From assembly GCA_965204695.1 (NCBI GenBank), contig OZ242007.1, forward strand, positions 3,047,701 through 3,111,700: a stretch of DNA of 64,000 nt, given 5' to 3'. Each line of letters opens with the position of its first letter. Within the stretch, counting starts at the first letter, position 1. The notes below the pieces were generated by a model that had not been told where the DNA came from, did no database searches, and was given only the letters and a program-made list of their open reading frames with translations. This document shows, piece after piece, positions 2,059-40,042 of the stretch. A program made the translations under genes and the position numbers. The stretch is from Arenicellales bacterium (GTDB lineage Bacteria; Pseudomonadota; Gammaproteobacteria; Arenicellales; JAHEKD01).

Positions 2059-5000
2059 ATGTTCAAACTACGATATATTCTCGCCAAGCATATTCTTCAC
2101 ACTATTCTCTTTGCCCAACTATTTACAATGTATCTGGCCCAAGCAGCGCAGGGGCCTGGATTGGGAAATCTTAATTACAATCCGTCAGAATTATTTACCC
2201 AAATATCAATACCTGTTGTTGATGATACAACGGGGATTCTTCCACCTGATTATCCTAATCGAAAGCATTTTGGCGTTAATGTAATGACTATGCTTAATGG
2301 TTATATGATAGGGGTGTTTGCGCCTGATAGTGGCGGAGGACCAGGTGGATGGATAGCTTTGGATGTCTCTAATCCGAGGAATCTTAACTTGGTTAAAACA
2401 ATATATGAGCCGGATACGTTTAATAGTAATCGAACAGGTAACGGCCTAAGGACAATTGATTTCCGCGAACCTCATTCGTTTGGGTTAAGTGAAAACAGTC
2501 ATATTGCAATTCAAACAGGGCGCGGGATTGAGATATGGGACTGGTCTGATGTTAATAATCCAGTACAAGTTTCAAAGCTGGCAATACCTGGTGTAAATTT
2601 TGGTGACTATAATAATGTTTCCTGGCAGTTGTTTTGGCAAGCACCCTATCTCTACGTGGCGAGAGGAAACGCGGGTTTGACAATTGTTAATACCTCGGAT
2701 TTGACAAATCCATCGATTGTGAAAACAGTATCTACTAGTGAGCTAGGGGGATTTAATATTGGGCCAGTTTTTGTACTTGGCAATCAACTCTTTGTCTCTA
2801 GTATGGAAACCACAGCCGGTTTTTCAATCCTAAATATCAGTGATCCTACTAACCCAATACTAGAAAAAAGTATTCAGTCACTACCAGGCAATTACTACGC
2901 TTCATGCTGGGATGGAGTTTATGCATACTTTGGGGGGCGGTCTCCAACAATTCCACTACGTGCCTATGACACCACGACGAATCCAATGCAGCTTGTGAAT
3001 GGCTCAATTTCAGGGTTTAGTAATCTTTACTGCAATGGACAAGATGATAAGCTTTTTTTGGGTAATCAAGATGAAATTGTCGCGATTGACGTTTCATCAA
3101 GTCAGAACTTTTCTGTATTGGGATCGGGGTCACTAAATGCCGTATCGTCCGATGTAGATCATGGGCAGGTTTTTCCGTTCGGGAATCTAGTTTGGGTTGG
3201 AAATGATCATGGTTCAGGGAGTGGATTAATTGCTCATCAAACATTGCCTGATACAGCCCCACCTGAAATTGTAGTAACTAATCCAGCCGCAAACGCAACC
3301 GATCAACCTGTCACGTCAAGAATCGGTATTGCATTGTCGGATAGTATTTTAATGGAATCGGTGAATAGTAGTACATTTGCCGTGATAGAGACTGCCACAA
3401 ATACTCAGATTGCTGGTAATTACAGTGTCAACTTGGGGTTTGTTAATTTTACACCCTCGGTCCCGTTAGTAGATGATGCTACTTATGAAGTCATCCTTGA
3501 TGGAATCCAGGATTTTGCAGGAAATTCTTTGCCCAACAGTAATTTCTTTTTTTCTACCGGGTCCTCAATAAACCACCAAATTGATATATCACCACGGTCT
3601 AATGCATTGACGCTCGAAACAGTAACATTTTCAGCAAATGCTGCGCCGATAAGTACTGGTGGGGTGGTTGAATATTCATGGGACTTTGGAGACGGCTCTA
3701 CTACAACACCTTTTTCCCAGTCATCTACAGCTTTGCATGCCTATTCTCAACCAGGTCACTGGAATGTCATCGTTACCGTGAGAGAAAATAATATCATCAC
3801 AACTAAATCAATTATCCAGACTGTTCATAATCCTGTTACCAGTAGTACTCCCACTACGGTAAGTACGATAGTTGCTAGTGATTCTATGGTGGTTGCAGTC
3901 AATGAAGATGCTAATACTGTCACTGCAATACAAAAGTCTGCACCCTTTTCCAAAATTTGGGAATCCGGCGTTGGGAAGCAACCCAGAAGTCTGGCGATTG
4001 CCCCCAATGGAGAAATTTGGGTTGTTAACCAGCAAAGCGATGATATTTCTATTCTTGATCCAAACGGGAATCTACTTACCAGTGTACAGCTTCCACGTGG
4101 CTCTCAGGCCTTTGGTATTGTGTTTGCTCCTGACGGATGTTGCGCCCTTGTCAGTTTGCAAGGAACCGGAGCATTATTGAAAATTGACCCGGCGAGCAGA
4201 TTGCAAACAGGCATGATTCAAGTAGGAATGTCAGCCAGAGGAATTGCCGTAGATAGTCAGTCACAAATTGCTTATGTAACGCGTTTTATCTCACCGCAAA
4301 CCCATGCTGAAGTTATCAGTGTGGATATTGCTTCGATGTTAGTAAACAATGTTATCCAGTTACAAAAAGATGTGACAACGATAGATGGCAGTGACCGCAG
4401 CCGTGGTATTCCTAATTACTTAAATTCGATTACAATTTCTCCTGATGGCCTGAAGGCATGGATAGCTTCGAACAAAGCGAATGTAGAGCGCGGAGTATTC
4501 AATGATAATAATCCGGTAAACGCATTGACGTTTGAGACAACAATTCGGGCTATAGCCTCACAGATTGATCTTGGCATGCAAGCGGAAATACCTTCCATGC
4601 AGATGGATATCGATAACCGAGCACAACCAAAGGCGATTATATTCAGTGATGTAGGCGATTATGTGTATATTGCTTTGGAGGGGCAAAATTCTATCGAAAT
4701 AAGAGATGCATATAACAACCAACGTGTCAGTGAAGTCAGCCAAACAGGCCTGGCACCTCGAGGTCTGGTCAAATCAAACAATCATCTGTTTGTTCATAAC
4801 TTTCTGAGCCGGACCATTTCGATATTTGATGTGACACAGGTTGAAGTGCCAAATGGCACAAGAGAAATAACCCAAGCTGGGTTCACTGAATTAGTAGCAA
4901 ACGAAGCACTTCACCCAAGAGTGTTGAAAGGCAAGCAAATCTTCTACAACGCCAGTGACCCTCGCATGACAAGGGATGGTTATATCTCGTGTGCCAGCTG

Positions 5001-8000
5001 TCACACTGATGGTGATACTGATAATCGGGTTTGGGACTTTACTGATCGAGGTGAAGGTTTAAGAAACACGATACAACTTTTAGGGCGAACGGGACTGGGT
5101 CATGGTAGAGTACACTGGACTGCAAACTTCGATGAAATTCAAGATTTTGAGAACGATATTAGATCGGGTTTTGGTGGTGTTGGGTTTCTGAGCGACAATC
5201 AGTTTGAGCAAACACAAGCGCCGCTTGGTAACCCCAAAGCAGGTTTAAATAATGATCTGGATAACCTGGCATTCTATGTGGGCAGTTTAAATAAATTTCC
5301 CAAAAGTCCATATCGAGAATCAAATGGTGTTTTAACGCCTGAAGCACAGCTTGGTAAAAATTTATTTTCCAGCCAAGGGTGTGATGGATGTCATTCCGGT
5401 GATTTATTTACAGATCTAACACGGCACGATGTTGGTACAATCCAGGCTTCATCAGGACAGAGTAATGGCCAATCTTTATCTGGAATTGGTATAGATACAC
5501 CAACGTTAATCGGTATCTGGCAAACGGCCCCTTATTTTCATAATGGGCAGGCACAAACATTGGATGATGTTTTATTGACGGGTACGGAACACTTCGTTTC
5601 AAATGAGGCAGATAGAAACAATTTAATCGCTTATTTAAACCAAATCGAATACGAAGGCCCAGAAATTATAGTGCCGGATCCTCCTGCAGAGTCCTCATAT
5701 GTTTATTTGAGTGATCTTGATGAAGAATCTTCAACCAACGGGTGGGGCCCCTTTGAAAAGGATCGTAGTAACGGCGAACAGGGTACGAGTGATGGTAATG
5801 TGATCTCCATCGCTGGCGAACAATTTTTGAAAGGTCTTGGCGTTCACGCCTACTCTGAGATTGCTTATCAGTTTAATGCGGGTCAATACGATCAACTTCT
5901 TGCAACGATTGGTGTTGATGATGAGACCAGCAACAGAGGATCGGTAAGGTTTCAGGTTCTGATTGATAATGTAATCAGTTATCAAAGCGTCATTATAAGT
6001 GGCGGAGAAAATGGAGTGGCTATATCAGTGGATATTCCACTAACCGCGACGGAAATAAAACTGATTGTTGATAACGCTGGAGATGGCGATGCGTACGATC
6101 ATGCTGACTGGGCTGATGCAAAACTTAGAGTACATGTTCCAGATGAACCCGTAAATACATCTCCTGTTGTATCAGCTGGAGCAGATCAAACAGTCAACTT
6201 GACTGATGCAGTCATCTTAAACGGTTCTATTACAGATGATGGCCTGCCAAATCCCCCATCAAATGTGGTGGCCAGTTGGTCGTTGGTTAGTGGCCCGGGG
6301 GGCGTATCGTTTGCAGATAGTTCTGCTCAAGTGACTTCAGCAACATTTTCAGTATCGGGGCAATACACGTTGAGATTGACCGCGACAGATACGGAACTGA
6401 CTGCCAGTGATGACATGATTGTTATGGTTCAGGGTTCAATTTCCGGCAGTGCCTGGTGTTTGAGATTGAAAGCATTGTCAGAAATTAATGCTAATCCATG
6501 GGCTTCCGTTGCAGAAATCGGACTTGTTGATCAATCGGGGCAGCTTATTGATCAATCCAGCTGGAGCATTCATTCTGTCAGTAGTGAAGAACTGGACGGC
6601 GAAAATGCTCCGGCAATATCAGCCATTGATGGTAATCCAAATTCGTTCTGGCACAGCAAGTGGTTTCAGCAGACGGCGCAGCCTCCACATATTTTGGAGA
6701 TAAATCTCGGTGACTCTCATTCACTTGCACAATTGCGTTACCTGCCCAGACAGGACGGCAATGTTAATGGAACAATAAAAGACCATCAAATTTATATCAG
6801 TCAACAATCTGATTGCAGTAATTGGCAATTGGTCGCAAGCGGTACCTGGTCTTCCGATACCAATGAAAAAATTGCTGACTTAGATACTGCATCAGGTAAC
6901 AATGAGCCGCCTGTTACAACTAATCCAGGCAACCAAACCAATCAGGAAGGTGATAATGGCATCAGTCTCGTTATTTCGGTCAGTGATCCTGATAGCGATC
7001 CATTGACTTATGATGCCGCAGGATTGCCTGAGGGCTTATCAATTAATACGTCAACAGGTGTCATTTCAGGTAATTTAGATTTTGATTCAGCTGGGGTTTA
7101 TAACGTAACAATAAGTGTTGATGATGGTAATGGTGGTGCGGATAGCGCTAATTTCACCTGGACAGTGAATAACGTTAATAGAGCGCCCGGCTTTGACACG
7201 TTAATTGGCGATCAAGCGAATGATGAAGGTGATTCGATTAATTTATCAGCCAGTGCAATGGACCCTGACACGGGTGATAGTTTAACCTACAGTGCTACAA
7301 ATTTACCGGATGGTGTATCGATTAATACAGGTACGGGTGTGATTACGGGTACCTTAAGTGCGGTTTCGGCAGGCAGCTATAACGTTGATGTGACTGTTTC
7401 AGATGATAACTCAACCGATGGTCAAAGTTTTGTGTGGACGGTTAATGATGTCAATCAGCCGCCCTCCATAACTAATCCAGGCAATCAGGTTAATCAGTTA
7501 TCTGATACGGTAAGTCTAACTGTGGTGGCGAGTGACCCTGATAGTGGTGATGTTTTGACTTTCTCAGAATCTGGACTGCCCGATGGATTGAATATAGATT
7601 CGAATACAGGCGAGATCAGCGGAATATTCGTGGCGGCCAATGTGTTTAACGTCACCATAACTGTTGATGATGGGAATGGTGGTATGGATGATGCGAGTTT
7701 CACCTGGACAGTGAATGATTCTGGTAACGTTCAAGAAACTATTTATGTTAGTTCTACATCAGGTGGTACGGTAGGTGGTGTGTCGTTTGCCGATGAAGAC
7801 ATTCTGGCGTTTGATGTCGCTGCGGAAACATGGTCAATGTATATAGATGGCTCTGATATAGGATTAAGTGATTCAGGCTCTCGCGATATGAATGCCTTCA
7901 CTATACTGGCAGATGACAGTATCGTTTTCAGTGTCGTTGGCGCAACAACATTGCCAGACGTTGGCAGCGTGGATGATTCAGACCTGATTCGATTTATTCC

Positions 8001-8502
8001 TACCTCGACTGGAACCACTGCAGCAGGCACTTTCGAGTTTTATTTTGACGGATCGGATGTTGGATTAAGTAGCAATGGCGAGGACATAGATGGCGTTAAC
8101 ATACTAGCCAATGGTAATATCTTAATCAGTACCTTGGGTGGCCACCGTGTTACGGGTGCATCAGGCTCCGACGAAGATTTACTCTTATTCACGCCAACAA
8201 CGCTTGGTGTGGATACATCGGGGACGTGGTCGGCTTATTTTGATGGGTCTGATGTTGGTTTAGGTGGTGTGAGTACTGAAGATGTTTACGCAGCTTGGGT
8301 GGATGATGTGACCGGAGATATTTACTTGAGTACTCGTGGTGCATTTTCGGTGACGGGATTAAGTGGTAATGGGTCAGATATTTTTATTTGTACGCCAACT
8401 TCTCTCGGGACGTCAACCAGCTGTAGTTACACCTTATTTTGGGATGGATCGGCATTTGGATATGGTTCAGAAATCATGGATGGGCTATTTATTCAGCGCT
8501 AA
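2059..8502 (+). CDS. Giant secreted multidomain protein (2147 aa): beta-propeller repeats, Ig/PKD domains, a di-haem peroxidase-like module, carbohydrate-binding-like modules, cadherin-like repeats and a novel C-terminal repeat
   Basis: Single uninterrupted ORF with AGGAG upstream and a hydrophobic N-terminal signal-like segment. Motifs seen: LVIVD-like (GLTIVNTSDLTNP), PKD (WDFGDGS), two CxxCH (4990-5004, 5380-5394), NPCBM-like (GWGPFEKDRSNGE), discoidin-like, three cadherin-like repeats and four DGSDxGL repeats. Confidence 0.8.
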   Translation: MFKLRYILAKHILHTILFAQLFTMYLAQAAQGPGLGNLNYNPSELFTQISIPVVDDTTGILPPDYPNRKHFGVNVMTMLNGYMIGVFAPDSGGGPGGWIALDVSNPRNLNLVKTIYEPDTFNSNRTGNGLRTIDFREPHSFGLSENSHIAIQTGRGIEIWDWSDVNNPVQVSKLAIPGVNFGDYNNVSWQLFWQAPYLYVARGNAGLTIVNTSDLTNPSIVKTVSTSELGGFNIGPVFVLGNQLFVSSMETTAGFSILNISDPTNPILEKSIQSLPGNYYASCWDGVYAYFGGRSPTIPLRAYDTTTNPMQLVNGSISGFSNLYCNGQDDKLFLGNQDEIVAIDVSSSQNFSVLGSGSLNAVSSDVDHGQVFPFGNLVWVGNDHGSGSGLIAHQTLPDTAPPEIVVTNPAANATDQPVTSRIGIALSDSILMESVNSSTFAVIETATNTQIAGNYSVNLGFVNFTPSVPLVDDATYEVILDGIQDFAGNSLPNSNFFFSTGSSINHQIDISPRSNALTLETVTFSANAAPISTGGVVEYSWDFGDGSTTTPFSQSSTALHAYSQPGHWNVIVTVRENNIITTKSIIQTVHNPVTSSTPTTVSTIVASDSMVVAVNEDANTVTAIQKSAPFSKIWESGVGKQPRSLAIAPNGEIWVVNQQSDDISILDPNGNLLTSVQLPRGSQAFGIVFAPDGCCALVSLQGTGALLKIDPASRLQTGMIQVGMSARGIAVDSQSQIAYVTRFISPQTHAEVISVDIASMLVNNVIQLQKDVTTIDGSDRSRGIPNYLNSITISPDGLKAWIASNKANVERGVFNDNNPVNALTFETTIRAIASQIDLGMQAEIPSMQMDIDNRAQPKAIIFSDVGDYVYIALEGQNSIEIRDAYNNQRVSEVSQTGLAPRGLVKSNNHLFVHNFLSRTISIFDVTQVEVPNGTREITQAGFTELVANEALHPRVLKGKQIFYNASDPRMTRDGYISCASCHTDGDTDNRVWDFTDRGEGLRNTIQLLGRTGLGHGRVHWTANFDEIQDFENDIRSGFGGVGFLSDNQFEQTQAPLGNPKAGLNNDLDNLAFYVGSLNKFPKSPYRESNGVLTPEAQLGKNLFSSQGCDGCHSGDLFTDLTRHDVGTIQASSGQSNGQSLSGIGIDTPTLIGIWQTAPYFHNGQAQTLDDVLLTGTEHFVSNEADRNNLIAYLNQIEYEGPEIIVPDPPAESSYVYLSDLDEESSTNGWGPFEKDRSNGEQGTSDGNVISIAGEQFLKGLGVHAYSEIAYQFNAGQYDQLLATIGVDDETSNRGSVRFQVLIDNVISYQSVIISGGENGVAISVDIPLTATEIKLIVDNAGDGDAYDHADWADAKLRVHVPDEPVNTSPVVSAGADQTVNLTDAVILNGSITDDGLPNPPSNVVASWSLVSGPGGVSFADSSAQVTSATFSVSGQYTLRLTATDTELTASDDMIVMVQGSISGSAWCLRLKALSEINANPWASVAEIGLVDQSGQLIDQSSWSIHSVSSEELDGENAPAISAIDGNPNSFWHSKWFQQTAQPPHILEINLGDSHSLAQLRYLPRQDGNVNGTIKDHQIYISQQSDCSNWQLVASGTWSSDTNEKIADLDTASGNNEPPVTTNPGNQTNQEGDNGISLVISVSDPDSDPLTYDAAGLPEGLSINTSTGVISGNLDFDSAGVYNVTISVDDGNGGADSANFTWTVNNVNRAPGFDTLIGDQANDEGDSINLSASAMDPDTGDSLTYSATNLPDGVSINTGTGVITGTLSAVSAGSYNVDVTVSDDNSTDGQSFVWTVNDVNQPPSITNPGNQVNQLSDTVSLTVVASDPDSGDVLTFSESGLPDGLNIDSNTGEISGIFVAANVFNVTITVDDGNGGMDDASFTWTVNDSGNVQETIYVSSTSGGTVGGVSFADEDILAFDVAAETWSMYIDGSDIGLSDSGSRDMNAFTILADDSIVFSVVGATTLPDVGSVDDSDLIRFIPTSTGTTAAGTFEFYFDGSDVGLSSNGEDIDGVNILANGNILISTLGGHRVTGASGSDEDLLLFTPTTLGVDTSGTWSAYFDGSDVGLGGVSTEDVYAAWVDDVTGDIYLSTRGAFSVTGLSGNGSDIFICTPTSLGTSTSCSYTLFWDGSAFGYGSEIMDGLFIQR
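6901..7716 (+). repeat. Three tandem ~92-codon repeats inside the giant gene, encoding cadherin/dystroglycan-type Ig-like modules
   Basis: The recurring block PxxTNPGNQxNxxxDxxSLxxxASDPDxxDxLTYSAxGLPxGLSINxxTGxISGxL...VTVxDGNGGxDxxxFTWTVND occurs three times. Confidence 0.8.
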
Positions 8503-8584
8503 TAAAACTAGCAACCCTAATGCTATAAGCCGAAATCTATAATATCTGTAGCTAAGTTCGTTGGTTAACAGGTTGGGTTAAAAT

Positions 8585-8748
8585 TGGGATTTATTCTATA
8601 GCTTTATTAGGGTTATATGCAGTAAACACCCAAAATTGATATTTGTAAGTTACTGATAAGTAAAGAATTTAAAAACAAATCCTTTTCTCATAATGATGGG
8701 GTCGCTAGTTCGAATCTAGCCATAGCCACCATAAAATCAATGACTTAT
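8585..8748 (+). repeat. Direct repeat copy B (~165 bp) downstream of the giant gene; includes a tRNA-Met 3' half
   Basis: Partner of 1559-1722. The same internal hairpins are present, and the same ~20 nt follow the CCA (TAAAATCAATRACTTA). Confidence 0.85.
8687..8731 (+). pseudogene. tRNA-Met(CAU) 3' half fragment, copy B
   Basis: CTCATAATGATGGGGTCGCTAGTTCGAATCTAGCCATAGCCACCA. It differs from copy A by one base in the T-loop (TTCGAAT versus TTCGGAT). No 5' half lies upstream. Confidence 0.8.
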
Positions 8749-9249
8749 ATGATAGCACTCAAAATAAAAATTATTTCGGTCTCCATATGGTCTCTTTTTA
8801 ATTGAAATATTAGCATTTCGGGTAATTTTAAGTGTCGATTTATGAGTTATTAAGTCTCTGAAGTTGAATAGCTTATCGAAAAACTCTAAAACGAAATTCA
8901 TTTGCTTCATGGAGTTTCTTATCGTAAATACTAATATTTGATCTAGATTTTTCTCAGAATTGAAACACTTTTCTCAACCATAAAAAAATCAACGAAATAT
9001 TATTACCTCAGATTAGTTTTACGAAATCAAATCTCAAAAAAATAGGTTTAGATCGCAGAAAAAAATACTAATAAATCATTAGTGTTTTACTGAGAATTAA
9101 CTTCTCACTTGTATGTCGTTAGTGATTTCTCTTTGATTGGGGAAGGCCAATATTAGCCGGGGGTATGCTTATATTATGATACCCAATTTAGAATAATTTC
9201 GATTTTCTAAACTTCTAATTAAATGTAAATCTTAGTTTAGTTTCTTTAA

Positions 9250-10244
9250 CTAATTTCCAATGTCGGTATTCATTTGATCAAGTGGGCTTTGGATATTCGT
9301 AAAATCAGATTTTATATGTGTATAGATCATCGTGGTTTGTAAATGGCGATGCCCAAGTAGTTGCTGAATAGTCCGGATATCTGTGCCAGAAGCTAGTAGG
9401 TGTGTCGCAAAGCTATGTCGAAGCGTGTGTATCCCTGCTTGTTTTTGTATTCCAGATTGATTTAATGCACTCTTAAATGGTTTTTGTAAGGTAGAAGGTG
9501 CTGTATGCCATCGTACCCATCGACTCGTTGTTTGCCATTGTCGAGTCACCGAGGATGGGAATACAAACTGCCAAGCCAACGATTTCGAGGCAGAGGGGTA
9601 TTTGCGATACAGTGCATTTGGCATCGGAGCATAACCTGCGCCGTTGAGTGAATCGTCTTTATGTTGAATAGCAACACTTAAAACTTGATCCTTAAGTTTC
9701 TCAACTAATTTAATCGGTAACAGAGCAACTCGATCTTTATTTCCTTTAGTCGCTCTCACCACAATGTTATTCATTTCAAAGTCAATGTCTTTGACTCTCA
9801 GCCGAATGCATTCACTAATTCTCAGTCCAGTACCGTATATCAATTCGGCCATCAGCCTAGGTGTTCCCTGCATATATGAAAGAATTTGACTGACTTCTTT
9901 GACTGAAAGCACAACAGGAATGACTTTACGTTTAACAGGACGAATGAGTTTAAGTAATCCCGATTATCAATTTCGAGTATTTCTTTATACAAGAACACTA
10001 GTGCATTGAGTGCTTGAGATTGGCTTCTTCCGGATAATCGACGTTGATTCACTAAGTAATTTAGGAATCGTTCTATATCAGCCTTATTCAGGTATTTTGG
10101 ATGGGTTTTGTTGTGAAACAGGATGTATTTTCGAATCCAATAAACGTAGGTTTTTCTGTATTAGGACTGAACTGCTTTCGGCGACAAGTTAAGCGAACTT
10201 GATCTAATAGACGAGGTTTTTGCTGTGAATTCGAATGACCCCAT
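9250..10244 (-). pseudogene. intI: Integron integrase IntI, disrupted by three frameshifts
   Basis: Tyrosine-recombinase C-terminus (HTLRHSFATHLL...GHRHLQTTMIYTH) plus the IntI-specific insertion (ALYRKYPSASKSLAWQFVFPSS). The N-terminal part TYVYWIRKYILFHNK...SQSQALNALVFLYKEIL sits in other frames. Shifts occur at homopolymers ~10217-10221, ~10151-10155 and ~9959-9961. The 995-nt span is not a multiple of 3. Confidence 0.85.
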
Positions 10245-10444: not shown

Positions 10445-10816
10445 ATGAATAAATCTAAAGAGATAGATAAATATCTTTTTTATAGAAAATTAGACAAGAT
10501 CATCATTTTCGCAATTTCCTTTTTCGTCTTGGCTGGACTGTTTTACTGGCAATGGACAAACGATCAACGAATCAAAAGCGAATACAAAATTGGAACGATG
10601 ATTGGTTTTGATAATACGTTGAGTGCAACTGCGAACGGACTGGAAGGTGAACCAGTATTTTTGGCTGAATTGGATGACGGTAGGCGAGTTAAAATTCATA
10701 TTAGACCGGGTGCATTAATGTTGAGAGGTAAGAAGGTTGAAATTTTGGAAACCTCGAATACTCAGCTAGGAACTTCAAGTTTTGAGTTAATTAGGTATTT
10801 AGATGAAAACAACTAA
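10445..10816 (+). CDS. Cassette 1: hypothetical single-pass membrane protein (123 aa)
   Basis: The ORF fills the cassette between attI and attC1. It has one N-proximal hydrophobic helix (IIIFAISFFVLAGLFYW), and its stop codon lies inside the R'' box. Confidence 0.6.
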   Translation: MNKSKEIDKYLFYRKLDKIIIFAISFFVLAGLFYWQWTNDQRIKSEYKIGTMIGFDNTLSATANGLEGEPVFLAELDDGRRVKIHIRPGALMLRGKKVEILETSNTQLGTSSFELIRYLDENN

Positions 10817-10889
10817 CAAGCCAATGCAGCCGACCACGAAACCCGTCACTTCGTTCCGTGTTTGTGTCGGCTGAGCTCAAACGTTAGGC
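10811..10889 (+). other. attC site 1 (79 bp)
   Basis: AACTAAC-AAGCC...imperfect palindrome GCAGCCGAC/GTCGGCTG...CAAAC-GTTAGGC. It is nearly identical to the two halves of attC2. Confidence 0.85.
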
Positions 10890-11317: not shown

Positions 11318-12503
<1,186 letters not shown>

Positions 12504-12581
12504 GCCAATGCAGCCGACCAACAAACCCTCACTTTCGTTCGGGTTCATGTCGGCTGAGTTCAAACGTTAGCTGCCAAGATT

Positions 12582-13528: not shown

Positions 13529-13585
13529 TTCTAACAAACCAAGGCAGCGTACGCGTAACCGCGCCGCTGCTTTCAAACGTTATAC
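13529..13585 (+). other. attC site 4 (57 bp)
   Basis: TTCTAAC-AAACC-AAGGCAGCG...CGCTGCTT-TCAAAC-GTTATAC, with one extrahelical base. Confidence 0.85.
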
Positions 13586-28634: not shown

Positions 28635-31390
28635 ATGATTCGTTAAACCAAGGCACCGTGGCCTGGTTTGCACGCAATCCGGTGGCCGCCAACCTGTTAA
28701 TGCTGGTGATACTGTTAATGGGCATTGTCACCGCCTTAAATTTACGCACGGAGTCGTTCCCGGCCATTGCACCCAACACGGTCACCGTTGATGTGACCTA
28801 CAACGGCGGCAGTCCTAAAGATAGCGAAGAGGGCGTGGCGGTTATCATTGAACGGGCACTGGACGGTGTGGCCGGGATCAAACGCATTACCTCAACTTCA
28901 ACCGAATCGGGTGTGACGGTCGGAGTGCGGATGCTGGATGGGTATTCACTAAACCGCTTGATGGAAGACGTTAAACTTAAGGTGGACAGCATCAATAATC
29001 TACCGGACCAAACGGAGCGTCCGATCATTCGCCAACAGCAAGAAGAACGTCATGTTATCTACGTGCAATTGTATGGCGAGGTTGACGAAAAAACACTCAA
29101 AGAAGCCGCGAACCGGGTTCGCGATGAGTTACTTTTATTAGAAGACGTTAATTTGGTCACGAATTATGGCGAACGTGATTATGAAATTAATATCGAAGTC
29201 TCGGAACAAAATTTACGCCGCTATGGATTAACGTTCGACGAGATCGTCAACGCTGTGCGCAACAACTCCATTAATCAATCAGCCGGAGCAGTGCAGACGA
29301 CGGCTGGACGGATTACCTTACAAACCCGTGAGCAAGCTTATTACGGTCAGGAATTTGGTGAGATTTCGTTGCGTGCGGCCGTCAGCGGTGCTGAGATAAA
29401 ACTTAAGGACGTGGCCCAAATCCTAGGCGGATTTGTGAATGAACAGGTGTTCTCAACCTTTCAAGGTCAACCCTCAATTGGACTGGACGTGCAGTTGATC
29501 GGTCAGGAAAGCATTACTCGTGCGTCTGAACGGGTACAACAACGAATTGACGAATTATAACGGGCAAGTTGGTTACCGCAATCGGTCAACATTGACACTT
29601 GGTATAACCAAGCGGCGTTTATTGAGGATCGCTTAGGTTTAATGCTGAAAAATGCCGCCCAGGGCATGTTACTGGTGTTGGTAATACTCGCGCTTTTCAT
29701 GAATTTAAAGCTAGCATTGTGGGTGGCTTTGGGCATCCCGGTCTCGTTTGCAGGCACATTATGGTTGATGGGGCCAGAGTATCTCAATTATTCGCTCAAC
29801 GAATTGACTACCTTCGGCTTTATTATCGTACTGGGCATTGTGGTGGACGATGCTATTGTCATTGGTGAGAATATCTTTACCGCTAAACGTCAACACGGCC
29901 CGGGGTTGGCTGCGACCGTTCGAGGGGCAAAAGAAGTGGCGGTACCGGCTACGTTCGGGGTGTTAACAACAGTAGCCGCGTTTTATCCGTTAACACTGAT
30001 CAAAGGTGAAATGGGCAGTTTGTTTGCACAAATTGTCGTGATTGTCATGGTGTGTTTGTTGTTTTCATTGGTGGAATCCAAGTGGATTTTACCTGCCCAT
30101 TTAGTGCCTGTTGATGTCTCCAGAACTAAAAAAGCCCGGGGCATAGCTGGGTTATGGCAATGCCTACAACTAAAAATTGATCAGGGATTACGGGTTGTTA
30201 TCGAACGAGGCTATTTGCCATTGTTAAAGCGGATGATTCATTGGCGTTATTTGGCTTTTGCTGGGTTCATTGCCGTATTCATCCTAACTGTGGGCATGAT
30301 TCCTGCCGGGAAAGTACGCAGTGTGTTTTTCCCGGATATTCAAACTGGGGTGGTATTCGCCGATGTCACGTTCAACAAAGGGATCGGGGCAGAGCGTGCC
30401 AATCATATGGCGCAACAGATCGATCAGGCTTTGAAAGTTGCGAGTGATGCGCTGAAACAGGAGTTATCACTGAAGGTTGATCCGGTACAGGCGGTATTTA
30501 CCTATGTCACTGACGATCAATCAGCCAATGTGATTGGCGAGTTGGCGCCTGCCAGTGAGCGACGTTATCCGGTTACAGAGGTGCTTAATCGCTGGCGGGA
30601 ATTAAGCGGTGACTTAACGGGGGTTAAATCGGCTGATTTTTACAGTGATTTTAGCGGCGAAGGTGACATTGAAGTGGAAATTAGGGGTTCAAATTTCAGT
30701 GTTTTATCTCAGGCGGCTCACCAACTGAAGCAACACTTACGTGATTTCCAGGGTATTTATGATGTTCAAGATAGTTTGGCCGACACCACCTCCGAATTGA
30801 TCGTTCATCTCAAACCACCGGCCATGGCTTATGGGTTAACCCAAGCCGATGTCACCAGCCAATTACGTCAAGGGTATTACGGTGAAGTGGCCCAACAGAT
30901 TCAACGTGGACGCGATGAAATCGATGTGCGGGTCCGCTATCCGTATCGTCAGCGCCAAAGCGTTACTGATCTTGAGAACATTCACATTCGTACTCCTGAC
31001 GGGGTATCGGTGCCGTTTACCACCGTGGCAACATTGGAATTAACCGATTCACTCAGCGAAATCAAACGGATCGATAAACACCGTGAGGTGACCGTCAGTG
31101 CTAGGGTCGATAAGGCAATTGCGTCATCGTCGGAGATCACCCAAAACTTACAATCTAACTTTTTCGGGCAGTTGGTGAGGGATTTTCCTGGTATTAAAAT
31201 CAATCTTGACGGCGAGGCCGCCGAAGAAGCAGATGCCTCCGCGTCCTTACTTAAAGGGTTTATTTTATCTTTGATGTTGATTTATGCCTTACTGGCGATT
31301 CCACTGAAATCCTATATGCAGCCGCTGGTGATTATGTCGGTGATTCCATTTGGGATAATCGGTGCGATCTTTGGACACTGGATAGTCTTT
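28631..31390 (+). pseudogene. RND permease (AcrB/HAE1-like) with an in-frame TAA and a deleted 3' end
   Basis: The same reading frame continues across the TAA at 29558-29560 (..RIDEL*RASWLPQSV..). Homology ends after ..IPFGIIGAIFGHWI (~31385), about 110 codons short of a full-length pump. Confidence 0.8.
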
Positions 31391-31398
31391 CTCTTTCC

Positions 31399-32124
31399 GT
31401 GTTGTTTTCAGGGTGTGTCGGTCGGACAGCCCTACAGGCTAATGAGAACAGCGCTCGAACATCAGCAGAGCATAACGATCCATTTGAAACCATTAATCGC
31501 TCCGTATATCGGTTTAATAGCAAAATCGATCAGTATGTGTTTAAGCCAATCGCCAAAACGTACCGAAAGATTACCCCTGATCCCGTTGAGAAGGGGGTAA
31601 GTAATTTTTTCGATAACTTGGGAGAGCCTGTCAATATGGTGAACAATGCCTTGCAAGGAAAATTAGACGATGCGGGGACCAGCGGTGGCCGCTTTATTCT
31701 CAATACCACCCTTGGGGTATTAGGAATTATCGATATGGCAGATAAGCTTGAGATACCCGACGTCGACGAGGACTTTGGTCAAACACTCGCCGTATGGGGC
31801 GTACCCAGTGGTCCATATTTAGTACTGCCGTTTTTTGGTCCACGTTATTTGCGCGGTACCAGTAGTTTTATCGTCGACAGAGCAGTGGATCCGCAAACTT
31901 ATGTTGGTGGCGATGCACGATTACCCTTAATCATTTTGGATACCGTCAATACACGGGCAGAATTCTTAGGGCAAGATGATTTTCTTGAGATGCAAATAGA
32001 TCCGTATATCTTTTTAAGAGAAAGCTATCAGCAACGACGCCAACTTGAAATTAAAGATACGGCAGCAGAACAGATTGATGATTTCGATGACGAGTTTGAA
32101 GAAGATGTGGCTGTGACACAATGA
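31399..32124 (+). CDS. mlaA: MlaA/VacJ-family lipoprotein; the 5' end is clipped at the deletion junction
   Basis: The lipobox remnant is LFSGC, followed by NDPFETINRSVYRFNSKIDQYVFKPIAKTY. Only ~4 residues precede the lipobox Cys if the GTG at 31399 is used. Confidence 0.7.
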   Translation: MLFSGCVGRTALQANENSARTSAEHNDPFETINRSVYRFNSKIDQYVFKPIAKTYRKITPDPVEKGVSNFFDNLGEPVNMVNNALQGKLDDAGTSGGRFILNTTLGVLGIIDMADKLEIPDVDEDFGQTLAVWGVPSGPYLVLPFFGPRYLRGTSSFIVDRAVDPQTYVGGDARLPLIILDTVNTRAEFLGQDDFLEMQIDPYIFLRESYQQRRQLEIKDTAAEQIDDFDDEFEEDVAVTQ

Positions 32125-33685: not shown

Positions 33686-34699
33686 TAACTAACCTGAGTT
33701 CGGAGAAACGGATTTAAGCTGAAGCCATGAAAGCTTGGTGTTCAGTTGTGGAGAGTTTAATAGCCGGTTTAAGGGGTTGGTGGGTGTATGCAATCAATCC
33801 GGCGATCAGATTGACAATAAAGTTTTTAGCACTGCGATGGCGAGTATGTTCAATCTGCGAGATATTCTTCAACTGATCGAAAATGGTTTCAATAATAAAC
33901 CGCTTTCTGAGCATAAGCCGATCCCATAAACTCATCAGTTGCGGTTTCATGTTCTTGCGGATGGTGGTAATCAAACGAAGATGTTGTTGATGCAATTTGG
34001 CGGTCAGTGTTTGAGATAAATAGCCTTTATCAGCGTATAGCATACCGGTTAACTGTTTGACTAATTCAGGGACAGGGGTCCGATCATCGGTATTGCCAGG
34101 TGTGAATTTAATCGCCAGAATTTCGCCTAAGTGATTGATCACAAGGTGTAATTTAAACCCATAGAACCAACCGGTTGAGGTTTTACCCCGTTTAGCGGTG
34201 TCTTTAAACACCAAGTGGCGAGGAATGCGCAGGTTATGGCAAACACACAATGACGTTGAATCAATAAACGCGATCCCGGTCGGTTGCCCATAACGTTGAG
34301 TCAGGTAAGCACATAACGGCACGGTGATACCACTCATGCGCTCGACAAAACGCGTGTAACTGAGCAGCCCTGGAAACTGATCGGCCAACTGTTTCACCAC
34401 ATGGTTCAAGTAATAGTGCTTGAAATTTCGATAACCGCTTCGGTGAAAGTGAATCACGATCGTCATGATCTCACTGTCTGATAGCTGTGTTGGATAAGGG
34501 CGTTTACGTGGGTTGGATTCGATCAGTTGCTGCTGGCAAACCGGGAGAAAACGCTGGCAAAAATCATCGACATCGCAGAATAATTCGACTAAATTCATAA
34601 CAACACCTGCTGGATAAGACAATTCATGAGGTAATTTATCTCATTTATCTTGCAGGTGTTTGTTTTTATTATCTTATTTCTTCGAACTCAGGTTAACTA
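33686..34699 (-). mobile_element. IS982-family insertion sequence (~1.0 kb)
   Basis: The terminal IRs are TAACCTGAGTTCGGAGAAA (left) and TAACCTGAGTTCGAAGAAA (reverse complement of the right end). It has a single transposase ORF. The exact outer ends are +/- a few bp. Confidence 0.8.
33714..34622 (-). CDS. IS982-family DDE transposase
   Basis: 302 aa. Motifs include DSTSLCVCHNLRI, GWFYGFKLHLVIN, FTPGNTDDR and YADKGYLS. Confidence 0.85.
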   Translation of the reverse strand: MSYPAGVVMNLVELFCDVDDFCQRFLPVCQQQLIESNPRKRPYPTQLSDSEIMTIVIHFHRSGYRNFKHYYLNHVVKQLADQFPGLLSYTRFVERMSGITVPLCAYLTQRYGQPTGIAFIDSTSLCVCHNLRIPRHLVFKDTAKRGKTSTGWFYGFKLHLVINHLGEILAIKFTPGNTDDRTPVPELVKQLTGMLYADKGYLSQTLTAKLHQQHLRLITTIRKNMKPQLMSLWDRLMLRKRFIIETIFDQLKNISQIEHTRHRSAKNFIVNLIAGLIAYTHQPLKPAIKLSTTEHQAFMASA

Positions 34700-34792: not shown

Positions 34793-35650
34793 ATGAGCCG
34801 ATTTGATGTTGTCCTCGCAATTCTTGTCGCCTTGGTGTGGGGATTTGCATTTGTGGTCATCAAAGTTGGAGTAGATAATTTTCCACCACTGTTGTTTTCG
34901 GCAATGCGATTTACATTTGTTGCCTTTCCGTTGGTTTTCTTTCTACCAGCACCCAAAACGCCCTGGCAGATCATCGTGGCGATAGGTTTTGCTCTTGGTG
35001 TCATAAAGTTTTCACTTCTATTCGTCAGCATTGATGTTGGACTAGCACCGGGTCTGGCGTCGCTATTAATCCAGCTGCAGGCTTTATTCACACTCATCTT
35101 CGCGGCAGTGTTACTTAAGGAAAAACCAACGCGACGCCAGATAACAGGAATTGTCATTGCATTTTGCGGCATCAGTGTAGTCATGATAACAATTGATTCA
35201 AGCTCTACATTACTGGGCGTTGTTCTGATCACGATAGCCGCTGTTGCCTGGGCTGTCGCAAACATTCTGCTGCGATATGCCGGACCTGCTCAGATGTTAA
35301 ACCTGATTGTCTGGGCTTCATTGGTGCCACCGTTGCCGGTCTTAGGCCTGTCATTATGGTTGGAAGGCCCAACAATTGGTTGGCAAGCGCTTACCACAAT
35401 GACATGGCAAGGTGGTTTGGCACTTCTGTATGTTACCCTTGTTGGCACATTACTTGGATTTGTAGGCTGGGGACGACTAATCAATCGCTATGGCCCAAGT
35501 CGTATCGCACCTTTCGCCTTATTAGTGCCAATCTTTGGTATGGCCTCATCCGCACTTTTTCTGGGTGAAACATTTGGACCAACGCGTCTTCTGGGGGCAT
35601 TGTTAGTTTTGATCGGGCTTTACTATACAATTGACCGCACTGTTATCTAA
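34793..35650 (+). CDS. EamA/DMT-family transporter
   Basis: It has 10 TM segments in two EamA repeats. The N-terminus AILVALVWGFAFVVIKVG is typical. Confidence 0.8.
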   Translation: MSRFDVVLAILVALVWGFAFVVIKVGVDNFPPLLFSAMRFTFVAFPLVFFLPAPKTPWQIIVAIGFALGVIKFSLLFVSIDVGLAPGLASLLIQLQALFTLIFAAVLLKEKPTRRQITGIVIAFCGISVVMITIDSSSTLLGVVLITIAAVAWAVANILLRYAGPAQMLNLIVWASLVPPLPVLGLSLWLEGPTIGWQALTTMTWQGGLALLYVTLVGTLLGFVGWGRLINRYGPSRIAPFALLVPIFGMASSALFLGETFGPTRLLGALLVLIGLYYTIDRTVI

Positions 35651-35904
35651 TGCATGAGAGTCATTACAGATTTCAGTCTCTGAACATGTATTGAACTACT
35701 GTAGTAAACAATAAGCGTAAGCGTTTAGTTAAGGACAGGATTTTCATTTAAGCTGCCATAGGATGGGGTGAATCAGTGACAGGTGTAGCGTAATTTAATC
35801 CGGCCTGATTACCCACCTTCAGAATGGGCAGAAGCAAATTGCCCTACAGCGATGGATTCATTGCCGGTGACATCTACAGTCTGTTCTAATCATTTTGAAT
35901 TTAT

Positions 35905-37434
35905 TTAACTGTTTGACAATTTTTTCCATATTTCATAGTCGCCAAAATTTTTTTCAAATTGATAATTTTTCCTAATATATTCATCCACAATATTTATATT
36001 TAGATCATATTTAGTATAATTTTCTTCGTACCAGTAGCTGGTCGTCAAAACAATTTTTGTTACTGCACTCGACTCAAGATCTTTAACTATTTGTTCTTGT
36101 GCCGCTGTGGTATTGGTTACCCCGGGGTCCAATTGATGAAATTTTGTAGGATAACCCCTATTAGATAAATAATAGATTATTGGTTTATTAACAATAAACT
36201 GGTCGTGATTTTTTACACCAACATAAATTTCTTCGTTAGATTTGGTATGGTTTTGAATAAAATGAATTGTCTGTTCAAGCTGGTCAGGCAAAGCTATCCT
36301 ACCTGCCCTGGCGACAATAGGTTTTCCGTTGTATTCAATAAATTCATCAATTTGATATTGATCCTTCCAGGTAACTGGAATTCTAAGAATATAAATAACA
36401 AAAAGGGAAAAGAATAATAAGCAGAGAAATCTAAGGTGCCCTTTTAATTGTTTATAACCCAAAAAGAATATAACTGGTACAAGCATCATGTTGATTAACG
36501 CTAGCGGTGTTAAATGTGCAACATCTGACCGAGCTAATACCTGGTTAAGAAAACAGATACCTATTAACGAAACTACCCATATTCCGTAATATTGAATTTT
36601 TATTTCCTTTGCTTTGATAATTTTTGTGGTTGTGAAGATAAATCCACATATGGCAACGAATGGAAAGAAATAGAATAGTTTGTTTGTAATTGATAAATCT
36701 GGATATGGTGTCGAACGAAAATTTGGCATTATCTCAATTGGTAGAATTATCAACTGTTGTATTATTTCTTTAATATCTATCTTCACCCAAATAAAAACCA
36801 ATATTGGCAGACCTAAAATTAAAAATGATGCTAGATAACACAATATATAAGTCCAGTTTAAGGGTTTTTGTTGTAAGGTTTTCAAGGTTAATACAAGTAA
36901 GATTGGAACTGCACCATATGTTGCCAAATCATGTCTGAATAAAGCACTTAGTGTTAACGAAATACCACAAAAAATGAGCGATAAATAGTCTTCCTTATCA
37001 AAATGAAACAATAAAAATATGACACCGATAAAAATTAATAAGATCGATGGAAAAATAGTGTAAAGCGAATTAGATGACCCTACTAGCCAAGCGATAGACA
37101 TAATCCAGCTGAGCAAAGCAATTTGCTTTTGTATGGTTATTTTTAACACAACAAAAAATGCTGATACGGCCAGCAACGCCTTAATTATTAAATCATAAAC
37201 TCGTGCAGTGATTAAACTTGACCCGAATGTATCAAACAAAAAAGCTAATAAATATGTTTGCCCTGGTGGATAGATCGTCCAAAATTCGTTAAACGGAATT
37301 TGCCCATTTTGTATGCGCTCTGCTCCTGCCAAAATTAAACCCTCATCGAAGGGATCCACTTTTTTTGTGATTATTGGGCAAAGAAGAATTATGGACAAAA
37401 TTAATAATAAAATAATTAAATTCCTATCTTTCAT
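35905..37434 (-). CDS. Passenger gene: polytopic GT-C-fold membrane glycosyltransferase-like protein (ArnT/PMT-type), 509 aa
   Basis: It has ~11 TM helices, an acidic first-loop motif (VDPFDEGLILAGAERI) and a C-terminal soluble domain. It is much more AT-rich than the IS genes. The probable start is MKDRNLIILLL; the track ORF extends upstream into IS sequence. Confidence 0.55.
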   Translation of the reverse strand: MKDRNLIILLLILSIILLCPIITKKVDPFDEGLILAGAERIQNGQIPFNEFWTIYPPGQTYLLAFLFDTFGSSLITARVYDLIIKALLAVSAFFVVLKITIQKQIALLSWIMSIAWLVGSSNSLYTIFPSILLIFIGVIFLLFHFDKEDYLSLIFCGISLTLSALFRHDLATYGAVPILLVLTLKTLQQKPLNWTYILCYLASFLILGLPILVFIWVKIDIKEIIQQLIILPIEIMPNFRSTPYPDLSITNKLFYFFPFVAICGFIFTTTKIIKAKEIKIQYYGIWVVSLIGICFLNQVLARSDVAHLTPLALINMMLVPVIFFLGYKQLKGHLRFLCLLFFSLFVIYILRIPVTWKDQYQIDEFIEYNGKPIVARAGRIALPDQLEQTIHFIQNHTKSNEEIYVGVKNHDQFIVNKPIIYYLSNRGYPTKFHQLDPGVTNTTAAQEQIVKDLESSAVTKIVLTTSYWYEENYTKYDLNINIVDEYIRKNYQFEKNFGDYEIWKKLSNS

Positions 37435-37486
37435 AGTGGTATAAAGGGTTCTTATATGGACACCGCCTGATTGACAAGGAATTTTT

Positions 37487-39106
37487 TCAAGCCGCATGGT
37501 CCAATTCAATATTAGGCTTAAACGGCAACAGGTCCTCAATCTGTTCAACCGTCGCCACCTTTGGCAGTTCAGTGAATATCATCTTTAAATATTGATAAGG
37601 CTCCAGGCCATTGACCTTGGCCGTCTCGATCAGGCTGTACAGGTTTGCACTCGCTTTAACACCCGATACGGTGTCGCAAAAAAGCCAATTCTTGCGGCCA
37701 ACCACATAGGGTCTGATCACGTTCTCGGCCAGATTATTGTCAATGTTCAAATAACCATCAGTGATATAAACCGTCAATTTATCCCACTGTTTGTCTAAAT
37801 AGTACATGGCTTTGCCCAAGGCGGTTTGCTTGACAATCAGTGGTAAGTGTTGATCCAGCCATTGCCGTAAATCATTAAGAATCGGTACAGATCGGGATCG
37901 ACGCAATTCATAGCGTTGTTCAGACGTATATGATTTAGCTTGCTTCTCGATCCGATACAATAGTCGAATCCGCTGTAATGCTTGATGGGCTAACGGTATT
38001 TTCCTGGACTTCAGTTTGCCTTGCGCTACAATCGCCTGGTCAAACTTGCGTTTAGCATGCGCCCAGCAACCTAATTGGGTAATGCCGTTTTCCAGGCAAA
38101 CTTTGTTATACCCCTCATAGCCATCCGTCTGTAAATAACCCGAATAATCCCCTAACAGGTCAACCGGAACACTTTGGCCTCGAGTTGGCGCATAGTCATA
38201 CAATATGATTGTTTTATCCGGCGGGCCACCACGTTGCACCCACATGAATGACTGACTTTGGGGCGTCTTACCCGGCTCTTTTAATACCTGGCATCGTGTT
38301 TCGTCCATCTGGATAATATCGTAGCTCAACATTGATTCACGCAGTAAATTAATCAGCGGCTGGGTCAATATGCCCACCTTGATCATCCAGTTCGCTAAAG
38401 ACGACCGAGTAATGGGTATCTTCAAACGCTTGAATTCTAACTCCTGACGATACAACGGCATCGAATTCACATATTTGTTAATCACGACATGCGCCAAAGT
38501 CCCCGCACAAGCGATACTGCCGGGAATCGGCTGAGTCGGCAGCTTTGCGGCTTTAATGGTTTGTTTGCAATTCGGGCAGCTATAGGTCTTCTTGATATGC
38601 TTGATCACTCGAACCGTCATGGGAATTAGTTCAATCTGCTCAGAAACTTTCTGACCGATTTGCTTCAACTCACTTTGGCAGTGATCACACGTGCATTCAT
38701 TCTCGTCCAGTTCATGGATCACTTCAACACGAGGCAAGTGATCTGGAAGTGGCCTACGGCCACCCTTTGACTGTTTACGGGTATAGCCCGATACATTAGT
38801 TTCGGACCCACCCTGATCAGGCTCGTTGTCTTGACTCGCATGATCGGCTAAAGCTTCTGCCTCATTGAATAGCAACGATAACTGATCCGAGTCGGTATTA
38901 AACTTCTCACTGCGTGAGCCAAAGTTCTGGTGCTTGGCTAAGGCAATCGCTTCAATAAGCTGATTAATATACTCATTTTGATGGTTGAGCTTGGCATCTT
39001 TGGTCACCAAATCATCAGTGAGATGGGTGATTGTTTTTTGCAGTTGAAACACGAGTTCTTTGAGTTTCTCAGGCTCATTAGGCAGTAATTCAACGGATTG
39101 ATTCAT
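37487..39106 (-). CDS. tnpC: IS66-family transposase TnpC (probable start MNQSVELLPNEPE; the track ORF starts at 39178)
   Basis: It has a leucine-zipper N-terminus, a zinc-finger-like CTCDHC...CPNC segment and the DDE core (IQMDETRCQVL...LQTDGYEGY...CWAHAKRKF). Confidence 0.9.
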   Translation of the reverse strand: MNQSVELLPNEPEKLKELVFQLQKTITHLTDDLVTKDAKLNHQNEYINQLIEAIALAKHQNFGSRSEKFNTDSDQLSLLFNEAEALADHASQDNEPDQGGSETNVSGYTRKQSKGGRRPLPDHLPRVEVIHELDENECTCDHCQSELKQIGQKVSEQIELIPMTVRVIKHIKKTYSCPNCKQTIKAAKLPTQPIPGSIACAGTLAHVVINKYVNSMPLYRQELEFKRLKIPITRSSLANWMIKVGILTQPLINLLRESMLSYDIIQMDETRCQVLKEPGKTPQSQSFMWVQRGGPPDKTIILYDYAPTRGQSVPVDLLGDYSGYLQTDGYEGYNKVCLENGITQLGCWAHAKRKFDQAIVAQGKLKSRKIPLAHQALQRIRLLYRIEKQAKSYTSEQRYELRRSRSVPILNDLRQWLDQHLPLIVKQTALGKAMYYLDKQWDKLTVYITDGYLNIDNNLAENVIRPYVVGRKNWLFCDTVSGVKASANLYSLIETAKVNGLEPYQYLKMIFTELPKVATVEQIEDLLPFKPNIELDHAA

Positions 39107-39185
39107 GGGGCTAATTTTACCACAGATAGCCCCGAAAGCCTTATAAACAAAGGCTTTAACCAAAATCATCATGCCCATGTTAATG

Positions 39186-39557
39186 CTATAACACCGTATG
39201 ATGCGGTAATTGCATATGACCTTGTAGCAAGGTTAGATCATACCCATCTAATAACCAGTTGATTTGCTGAGCGTTGAGCTCAACCTGGTCCATCGGCAGA
39301 TTCACCGGCCAGCGAAACCGGGCTTTCTCAATACGTTTCATCCACAGAATAAACCCGTTGCCTTCCCAGGCAATCATTTTGATAATCGTTCTGGCTGCAT
39401 TGCAGAAGATAAACAATTTCGAGGAAAACGGGTCTAAATTCATCTGTCCCTCAACAATGGCGACCAACCCATTTATCGATTTGCGCATGTCCACCGGATG
39501 ACGATACAAATAAATCACTGAATCTGAAGATGGACGAATCAACGCTTGAGTCCACAA
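39186..39557 (-). CDS. tnpB: IS66 Orf2 (TnpB)
   Basis: IYLYRHPVDMRKSINGLVAIV...DPFSSKLFIFCN...GNGFILWMKRIEKARFRWP is the canonical IS66 orf2 motif set. Confidence 0.9.
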   Translation of the reverse strand: MWTQALIRPSSDSVIYLYRHPVDMRKSINGLVAIVEGQMNLDPFSSKLFIFCNAARTIIKMIAWEGNGFILWMKRIEKARFRWPVNLPMDQVELNAQQINWLLDGYDLTLLQGHMQLPHHTVL

Positions 39558-39889
39558 CTGGTGATAATCGATCGAATTGTCTTGGCATCCAGCTCACCAG
39601 TAAACTCAATCACTGTGCCGTTGCTCAGTTTTATTGTGCAACCCGGTAATGCAGGGGAAGAGTGTACGGCCGCTACCGGAATAAAATTCGGTTTGTCCGA
39701 CTGTGCCTCAGACCGATACAGTCCAAGCCTAACCAGCTTACTTTTCCATTGATACAACGTCTTTAAACGCAAACCCTGTGTCAGAGCATAATCCGCAATA
39801 CTGTCTTCACTTTTATCAGCTGCTTTAACATGGTCCAGCCATAAACGCTGCTTTGCCGTCATCGTCTTTGCCAGCATTCCAGTCTCCAA
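39539..39889 (-). CDS. tnpA: IS66 Orf1 (TnpA)
   Basis: 116 aa with the HTH-like segment SIADYALTQGLRLKTLYQWKSKL. It overlaps orf2. Confidence 0.8.
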   Translation of the reverse strand: METGMLAKTMTAKQRLWLDHVKAADKSEDSIADYALTQGLRLKTLYQWKSKLVRLGLYRSEAQSDKPNFIPVAAVHSSPALPGCTIKLSNGTVIEFTGELDAKTIRSIITSCGLKR

Positions 39890-40042
39890 TTATGAAAACC
39901 ATACTCTGGCTGATTTATTCTTAACTGGCTAGACCGTCCGGAAATTGACGCTTACCAATAAGCTAAACGAAATAGAGCTACAAAAACAGGGTACATAAAT
40001 AACGCGCTAATTTATACTATGTGATTACATGAGGTCATTTGA

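Follow-up and report, generated by a model that had tools for sequence, protein, structure and literature searches.

Introduction

Insertion sequences (ISs) that carry passenger genes form an established category, the transporter ISs (tISs; PMC9330008). Within the IS66 family, 7 of the 25 Pseudomonas entries in ISfinder carry passengers and are named tIS66 (PMC12888890, 2026). The element ISPa75 harbors fosZ downstream of its DDE transposase gene, and its termini are each similar to those of a different IS66 element; ISPsp18, ISPa128 and ISPa120 are other tIS66 entries of ISfinder (PMC12888890). Here, we describe a 64-kb stretch of the chromosome of an Arenicellales bacterium (contig OZ242007.1; called the window throughout, with position 1 as its first letter), in which an IS66-family element at 35717-39955 encloses a complete gene for a membrane glycosyltransferase of the GT-C fold. 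We consider it likely that this whole segment is a tIS66, composed of a left terminal inverted repeat (IRL), tnpA, tnpB, tnpC, the passenger gene and a 188-nt tail closed by the distal repeat.

Like ISPa75 and the other tIS66 elements, the window element shows the order tnpA-tnpB-tnpC followed by one passenger, inside GTAAGCG-type repeats and with target duplications around the unit. In both cases the ends resemble those of two different IS66 elements, suggesting capture of the cargo between two ISs. The window element has the architecture of a tIS66 and probably the same origin. Unlike ISPa75, its cargo is not a resistance gene, being instead a 509-aa GT-C glycosyltransferase, and the window element is known from a single chromosomal copy, while ten different target duplications are on record for ISPa75. 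A preliminary description of this DNA, made from its letters, had called the locus an unusual cargo-bearing IS66, which overstates the case considering the proportion of passenger carriers among the Pseudomonas entries. Cargo-carrying IS66 elements were already known, and the novelty here lies in the divergent transposase lineage and in the GT-C glycosyltransferase cargo. A limited literature search found no GT-C glycosyltransferase among IS66 cargos.

Results

The element is delimited by two GTAAGCG-type ends and an exact 8-bp duplication

The element measures 4,239 bp. Its IRL (GTAAGCGTCAATTTCCGGACGGTCTAGCCAGTTAAG) occupies 39920-39955 on the minus strand and agrees in type with that of its closest sister element, L107. 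The distal terminal inverted repeat (GTAAGCGTTTAGTTAAGGACAGGATTTTCATTTAAG) lies at 35717-35752 on the plus strand, that is, in the position of a right end (IRR) although its type is that of a left end. Read inwards, the two ends are equal at 24 of 36 positions (19/30 over the first 30). When every 36-mer of both strands was compared, covering 128,000 window positions, the runner-up match to the end at 39955 reached 20/36, and no further copy of either end was found in the window at 3 mismatches or fewer. The heptamer GTAAGCG opens nearly all the ends of the related elements that we defined.

Directly outside the two termini stands the octamer CAATAAGC, at 35709-35716 and, as an exact partner, at 39956-39963. 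The letters across the junctions are CAATAAGC then GTAAGCGTTTAG at 35709-35723, and GACGCTTAC then CAATAAGC at 39947-39963. On a wider view of the plus strand, the region around 35709-35739 reads GTAGTAAA, CAATAAGC and then the element start GTAAGCGTTTAGTTAAGGACAGG, and the region 39940-39969 reads the element end GGAAATTGACGCTTAC, then CAATAAGC, then TAAACG. The octamer occurs 5 times in the 64-kb window, versus 2.4 occurrences expected, and any one given position would show it by chance with a probability of about 1.7e-5. As the two copies cease to agree beyond their 8 bp on either side, a longer local repeat, which the preliminary description had allowed for as a source of the match, does not explain it. 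Moreover, an exact 8-bp duplication was found in each of 18 related elements. The insertion site is intergenic, between a gene for an EamA-type transporter (ending at 35650) and a convergent gene for a xanthine-dehydrogenase large subunit (ending at 40043), and the empty site expected before insertion reads CTGTAGTAAACAATAAGCTAAACGAAAT.

The termini, their 24/36 match and the perfect duplication that had been reported from the letters were all recovered in our analysis, as was the position of the passenger (35905-37434) within them, confirming the observation of a 4.2-kb IS66 element with cargo inside its ends. The preliminary description had gone further and regarded the segment as proven to be one unit. 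This holds for the ends, as the duplication means that both integrated together, and does not hold for the cargo, as a later entry of the passenger between ends already in place is compatible with the same duplication.

A complete IS66 core of a divergent lineage

The core genes all lie on the minus strand and are full length compared with their relatives. The DDE transposase gene tnpC (37487-39106) encodes 539 aa when counted from the Met common to its relatives; the public annotation starts at the ATG at 39178 and gives 563 aa (P0021). Its product matches PF03050 at 1.9e-92, over positions 2-283 of the 284 of the profile, as well as PF13007, PF13005 and PF13817 (the LZ, zinc-finger and C-terminal IS66 domains), and scores 422 bits against NF033517, whose cut-off is 180 (E 1.5e-126). 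The tnpB gene (39186-39542) encodes the IS66 Orf2 accessory protein of 118 aa (PF05717 at 1.3e-35; NF033819). Its start was set by comparison with the sister elements L013 and L002, and this TTG overlaps the TGA stop of tnpA as TTGA at 39539-39542. The accessory gene tnpA (39539-39877) encodes 112 aa as publicly annotated (NF047593 at 3.8e-11), with an alternative TTG start at 39889 that would give 116 aa; the exact 112-aa product is present in a public protein collection. These domains, the GTAAGCG ends and the 8-bp duplication place the element in the IS66 family, in agreement with its first assignment.

From what is known of the family, the TnpC transposase together with TnpA and TnpB would act on the two GTAAGCG repeats. 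The whole segment would thus have been inserted between the EamA-type and xanthine-dehydrogenase genes, with staggered 8-bp cleavage giving rise to the CAATAAGC duplication.

TnpC relatives were gathered from one genome per species, from JGI metagenomes and from a large protein collection, and none of those collections contained a relative with more than 83% identity to TnpC of the window. The protein is at most about 48% identical to the IS66 transposases of Pseudomonas plasmids and at most about 51% identical to that of any plasmid-borne IS66. The transposase lineage is divergent and new.

Canonical three-ORF IS66 elements (about 2.4-2.7 kb; the Arenicellales copies L004-L010 and the metagenomic relatives L051-L064) share with the window element the tnpA, tnpB and tnpC domains, the GTAAGCG ends and the 8-bp target duplication. 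In canonical relatives with 58-72% TnpC identity, the element closes 21-24 nt past the tnpC stop, and its right-end repeat extends over the final codons of tnpC; in Arenicellales copies at 59% identity, some 65 nt separate the end of the protein match from the end of the element. One Arenicellales chromosome bears 7 copies of the latter kind (59% identity), 6 of them with definable ends, each 2,533 bp long and flanked by its own 8-bp duplication. The expectation that an IS66 should end close to its tnpC stop (37487 in the window) was therefore right. In contrast, the window element continues for 1,770 nt past this stop and terminates in a left-end-type repeat; compared with canonical relatives, a tail of this length is exceptional.

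A passenger gene for a GT-C fold glycosyltransferase

The passenger gene (35905-37434, minus strand) encodes 509 aa and starts 52 nt past the tnpC stop, on the same strand as tnpC; its homologues share its starting Met. With 31.9% GC (28.8% at third codon positions, GC3), the gene is poorer in GC than the IS core (45.4%) and the whole window (42.4%), and lies at least 10 points under both the flanks and the IS. The composition of the passenger is foreign. From the passenger stop to the distal repeat runs a subterminal non-coding tail (35753-35904, minus strand); together with the repeat, these last 188 nt (35717-35904) have 42.6% GC and hence are not AT-rich. The 1.77 kb of AT-rich DNA noted earlier is thus AT-rich in the passenger and not in its final 188 nt.

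The family of the passenger is small, with 18 homologues among 5.8 billion proteins, the closest at 49% identity. A search against PMT_2, which had been proposed from the letters, gave nothing at E <= 0.01 for the passenger itself and gave matches to PF13231 in 10 of 17 homologues (best 1.2e-10). Two motifs are conserved in the family: D30-E31-G32 stands directly after the first transmembrane segment (TM1), with G32 invariant and D30/E31 present in at least 90% of the 17 members, and F166-R167-H168-D169 (the F-R-H-D motif) is invariant or nearly so. The passenger retains all 38 conserved positions of the family, 19 invariant and 19 near-invariant.

An AlphaFold2 model built from the family alignment reached a pLDDT of 89.4 and a pTM of 0.91. 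The best 21 Foldseek matches of this model in the PDB are all GT-C enzymes (STT3, DPY19, AftA, ArnT, PglB, Pmt4 and ALG9), with a probability of 1.00 and TM-scores (query) of 0.50-0.61, the top score being that of ArnT. A profile of the passenger family compared with PDB sequences found no solved structure, so that only the fold comparison worked. As in ArnT (5f15), AftA (8if8), STT3/PglB, DPY19 and Pmt4, the model has a polytopic N-terminal membrane domain and a soluble C-terminal domain, and as in the solved GT-C structures an acidic D-E motif opens the first periplasmic loop. The difference lies in the sequence, which shares only 10-13% identity with the solved structures and stays under every Pfam threshold. 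Taken together, the model, the D-E motif after TM1 and the PMT_2 matches of the homologues identify the passenger as a complete GT-C fold glycosyltransferase, in line with the GT-C-like polytopic protein first suggested.

We also looked at the surroundings of four homologues. In three of these loci the GT-C gene belongs to a module with a GT2 gene and a SAM-dependent methyltransferase gene (L001, 6400-9608; L046, 709-3655; L047, 1997-5745), which in L001 and L047 is placed among sugar-nucleotide and polysaccharide genes. The homologues examined do not adjoin IS66 genes, and the IS carries the GT-C member of the module only. No phage relatives of the passenger were found, and plasmids yielded one weak match (29% identity, 43% coverage).

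In enzymes of the GT-C fold, the sugar donor is linked to polyprenyl phosphate, and the acceptor receives the sugar at the periplasmic face. The passenger would likewise perform sugar transfer, most likely to a surface polysaccharide, considering that its homologues stand in polysaccharide clusters beside GT2 and methyltransferase genes; as only the GT-C gene is carried, any activity would depend on a donor made by the host. Of the role in lipid A or surface-glycan modification put forward earlier, what the fold and the homologue neighborhoods suggest is thus a candidate function. Expression would probably occur by read-through from tnpC; the two genes share a strand, and the 52-nt gap between them (37435-37486, minus strand) has no predicted terminator-like or promoter-like site on the minus strand.

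The distal end resembles a left end, and related elements carry other cargo

In canonical relatives, left and right repeats clearly differ past the shared GTAAGCG. We compared end types as identity over positions 8-30 (23 nt). Left ends agree among themselves at a mean of 13.7/23 and with canonical right ends at a mean of 8.1/23. The distal end of the window element (35717) agrees with left ends at a mean of 13.5/23, reaching 19/23 with the left end of L013, versus a mean of 8.9/23 with canonical right ends; over its full length it matches the IRL of L013 at 29/36. L013 and L002 have distal ends that tend towards the left-end type as well. These comparisons indicate that the distal repeat of the window element is of left-end type and not a native right end, and that it probably derives from a second IS66.

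The closest TnpC relatives of the window element are cargo-bearing and not canonical. The sister L107 (TnpC 83%; 5225-9724, 4.5 kb) carries a 614-aa DUF676-like cargo on the same strand, and no duplication was found around it. At its distal end (9645-9724), roughly 80 nt from the left end of an inverted IS66 are preserved, reaching into the first codons of tnpA. In addition, 22 nt past tnpC it still has a native right end (7672-7693) reading CTTAGCGGTTAC versus the canonical CTTAGCGCTTAC (p ~0.004), in which a single base of the terminal heptamer is substituted (CGGTTAC versus the canonical CGCTTAC). The sister L013 (TnpC 75%; 4,389 bp) is flanked by the duplication AACTGAAA and has a relic of the native right end that is more decayed (p ~0.01-0.03). 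Its 563-aa cargo, again on the same strand, has an N-terminal hydrophobic segment and no family match, and is probably secreted.

The sisters L002 and L011 (TnpC 73%; 2,811 bp) have a 414-nt tail with a 101-aa membrane ORF. They are equal at 2,810 of 2,811 nt and lie on different contigs with unrelated flanks, each with its own duplication (TATCATCC and AATATTA(G), respectively). An extended element of this clade thus transposes whole.

In the sisters L107, L013 and L002/L011, as in the window element, the cargo slot opens at the tnpC stop, the cargo shares the strand of tnpC, and the distal repeat is left-type. Similarity among them and the window element stops at the tnpC stop codon, and their cargos and subterminal tails are mutually unrelated. 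They differ in that L107 and L013 retain a recognizable, mutated native right end and the window element does not. The left-end type of the distal repeat and these two sisters support the idea, already present in the preliminary description, that the element has exchanged its original distal end for another.

We are somewhat inclined to favor, as the most economical account of the sequence comparisons above, a capture by loss of the right end and recruitment of the left end of a second IS66. The native right end, 21-24 nt past tnpC, would have been lost or inactivated, and its role would have passed to the left end of another, related IS66 situated in inverted orientation beyond the gene. The element would thus be bounded by two left-type repeats.

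Several candidate traces of this history were examined and set aside. The 45 nt past the tnpC stop were scored against random 45-mers, and a possible relic of the right end placed by MAFFT at 37458-37479 (CCTTGTCAATCAGGCGGTGTCC) gave p = 0.27-0.59 against canonical tails and 0.14 against L107. The decayed original end that had been suggested at 37438 starts at 37439 and matches the two ends at 11/36 and 8/36, which is the level of chance. A reading of the 188-nt tail as a remnant of the 3' part of tnpC, based on GGCAGCTTAA located 31 nt from the end, found nothing in blastn-short and tblastx searches, and CTGCC also occurs in left ends. Finally, a subterminal module shared between this tail and the 186-nt tail of L013 was discarded, as the two tails resemble each other in the terminal repeat only; inside the repeat, the 188-nt tail has no significant similarity to the tails of the sisters or to tnpC.

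Two further observations concern related loci. In L013, tnpC (6001-7623) is split into three ORFs of 149, 361 and 72 aa, either because the copy is decayed or because of frameshift errors in a metagenome-assembled genome. In L108 (TnpC 78%), CAACGGCTAC stands at 7687-7708, where the native right end is expected, and is followed by three ORFs on the same strand (148 aa; 345 aa, Trypsin_2-like; 217 aa, pYEATS). Over the next 6 kb, a distal end of IS66 type was looked for and not found.

Alternative explanations

Several results speak against the element being a tIS66 with a captured, working cargo. The 64-kb window contains no second copy of the element, and the evidence that this very unit is mobile comes from one duplication. 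No significant relic of the native right end was found in the spacer between tnpC and the passenger (p = 0.14-0.6), where it is expected, and the left-end likeness of the distal repeat runs for only about 36-46 nt; the origin of this end from a second copy is less certain here than for L107. Concerning the passenger, the protein itself matches no Pfam or NCBIfam family (PF13231 included, at E <= 0.01), tblastn detected no partner GT2 and methyltransferase genes in the window, and no promoter or good ribosome-binding site was recognized for the gene, making a silent hitch-hiker possible.

A canonical IS66 could have integrated first, with its duplication, and only afterwards received the passenger in the interval from tnpC to the right end, perhaps through recombination with a different element, in which case the unit never moved with its cargo. 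In favor of such a history, the duplication proves the joint arrival of the ends only, one copy is seen in the window and the collections contain no TnpC relative above 83%. We nonetheless judge it improbable. An original end pushed outwards should be of the canonical right-end type, whereas the distal repeat is of left-end type; the sister pair L002/L011 shows an extended unit with such an end transposing whole; and the junctions carry no signature of a recombination site. Less credible still is a coincidence, in which a canonical IS66 lost its right end beside a glycosyltransferase gene that was already resident, another IS left the repeat at 35717 as a solo relic and the match of CAATAAGC is due to chance. 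It is true that the passenger has no functional link to transposition, that solo IS ends occur in genomes and that a second IS lies 1 kb away (33690-34695). However, the probability that an exact 8-bp match falls by chance just outside the two GTAAGCG termini is about 2e-5, the GC content of the passenger is at least 10 points lower than that of flanks and IS, and its homologues are normally located in polysaccharide clusters and not between a transporter gene and a xanthine-dehydrogenase gene.

The remaining alternative accepts the structure of a tIS66 and holds that it is a dead fossil, no longer able to transpose and with a silent passenger. This we regard as unlikely, although it carries more weight than the two preceding explanations. 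The ends of the element match at only 24/36 (19 of the first 30), versus 21-26/30 in several canonical relatives, the element is seen as a single copy, and no promoter or strong ribosome-binding site was found for the passenger. Against this view, the three tnp frames are full length with complete domain coverage, the duplication is undecayed and the passenger keeps its 19 invariant and 19 near-invariant family residues. A tIS66 made of the IS66 core, the passenger and the tail, delivered as one unit, stays our preferred description of 35717-39955.

Other features of the window

A second, unrelated IS lies 1 kb upstream of the element, at 33690-34695. Its 19-nt terminal inverted repeats (TIRs; 33690-33708 and 34677-34695) are 95% complementary and enclose a gene for a 302-aa DDE_Tnp_1_3 transposase (33714-34622, minus strand). 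A direct repeat of 163 nt with 89% identity (1560-1722 and 8585-8747) flanks an ORF of 2,147 aa (2059-8502) with He_PIG, NPCBM, PKD, F5/8 type C, Big_5 and cytochrome-c-peroxidase-like domains. A family of 41-nt repeats is found at 10816-10856, 12500-12540 and 13534-13574 (83% and 66% identity to the first copy), with few long ORFs around, and the same region holds the inverted pair 12948-12985/13524-13561; these repeats and the inverted pair may be REP- or MITE-like. An ORF of the AcrB family (29642-31600, 652 aa) aligns with the ACR_tran profile (1,021 positions) from 338 to 910 only, and may represent a split or truncated gene. Scans for Rfam families and tRNAs gave no hits in the window.

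Discussion

The locus provides a well-delimited example of IS66 cargo beyond resistance genes, a cell-envelope glycosyltransferase in an environmental bacterium, and together with its four sister elements it offers a sequence-level picture of how IS66 cargo carriers may arise. It leaves the current understanding of IS66 or tIS elements unchanged. The most useful by-product is the pattern seen at the level of the clade, namely left-type distal ends combined with mutated native right ends.

A broader interpretation, which we put forward as speculative and doubtful, is that this IS66 clade, found mostly in marine Arenicellales-like Gammaproteobacteria, acts as a modular gene shuttle through repeated loss of the right end and recruitment of the left end of a second copy, with the GT-C passenger as a transposable modifier of the surface glycan. 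If this were true, its members would be left-end/left-end transposons picking up whatever lies between. Seroconverting phages carry glycosyltransferase genes, and the effect of an IS-borne glycan modifier would then be comparable. If the passenger is active, one transposition or transfer event could change the surface glycan of the host cell, which would be relevant to resistance against phages and grazers.

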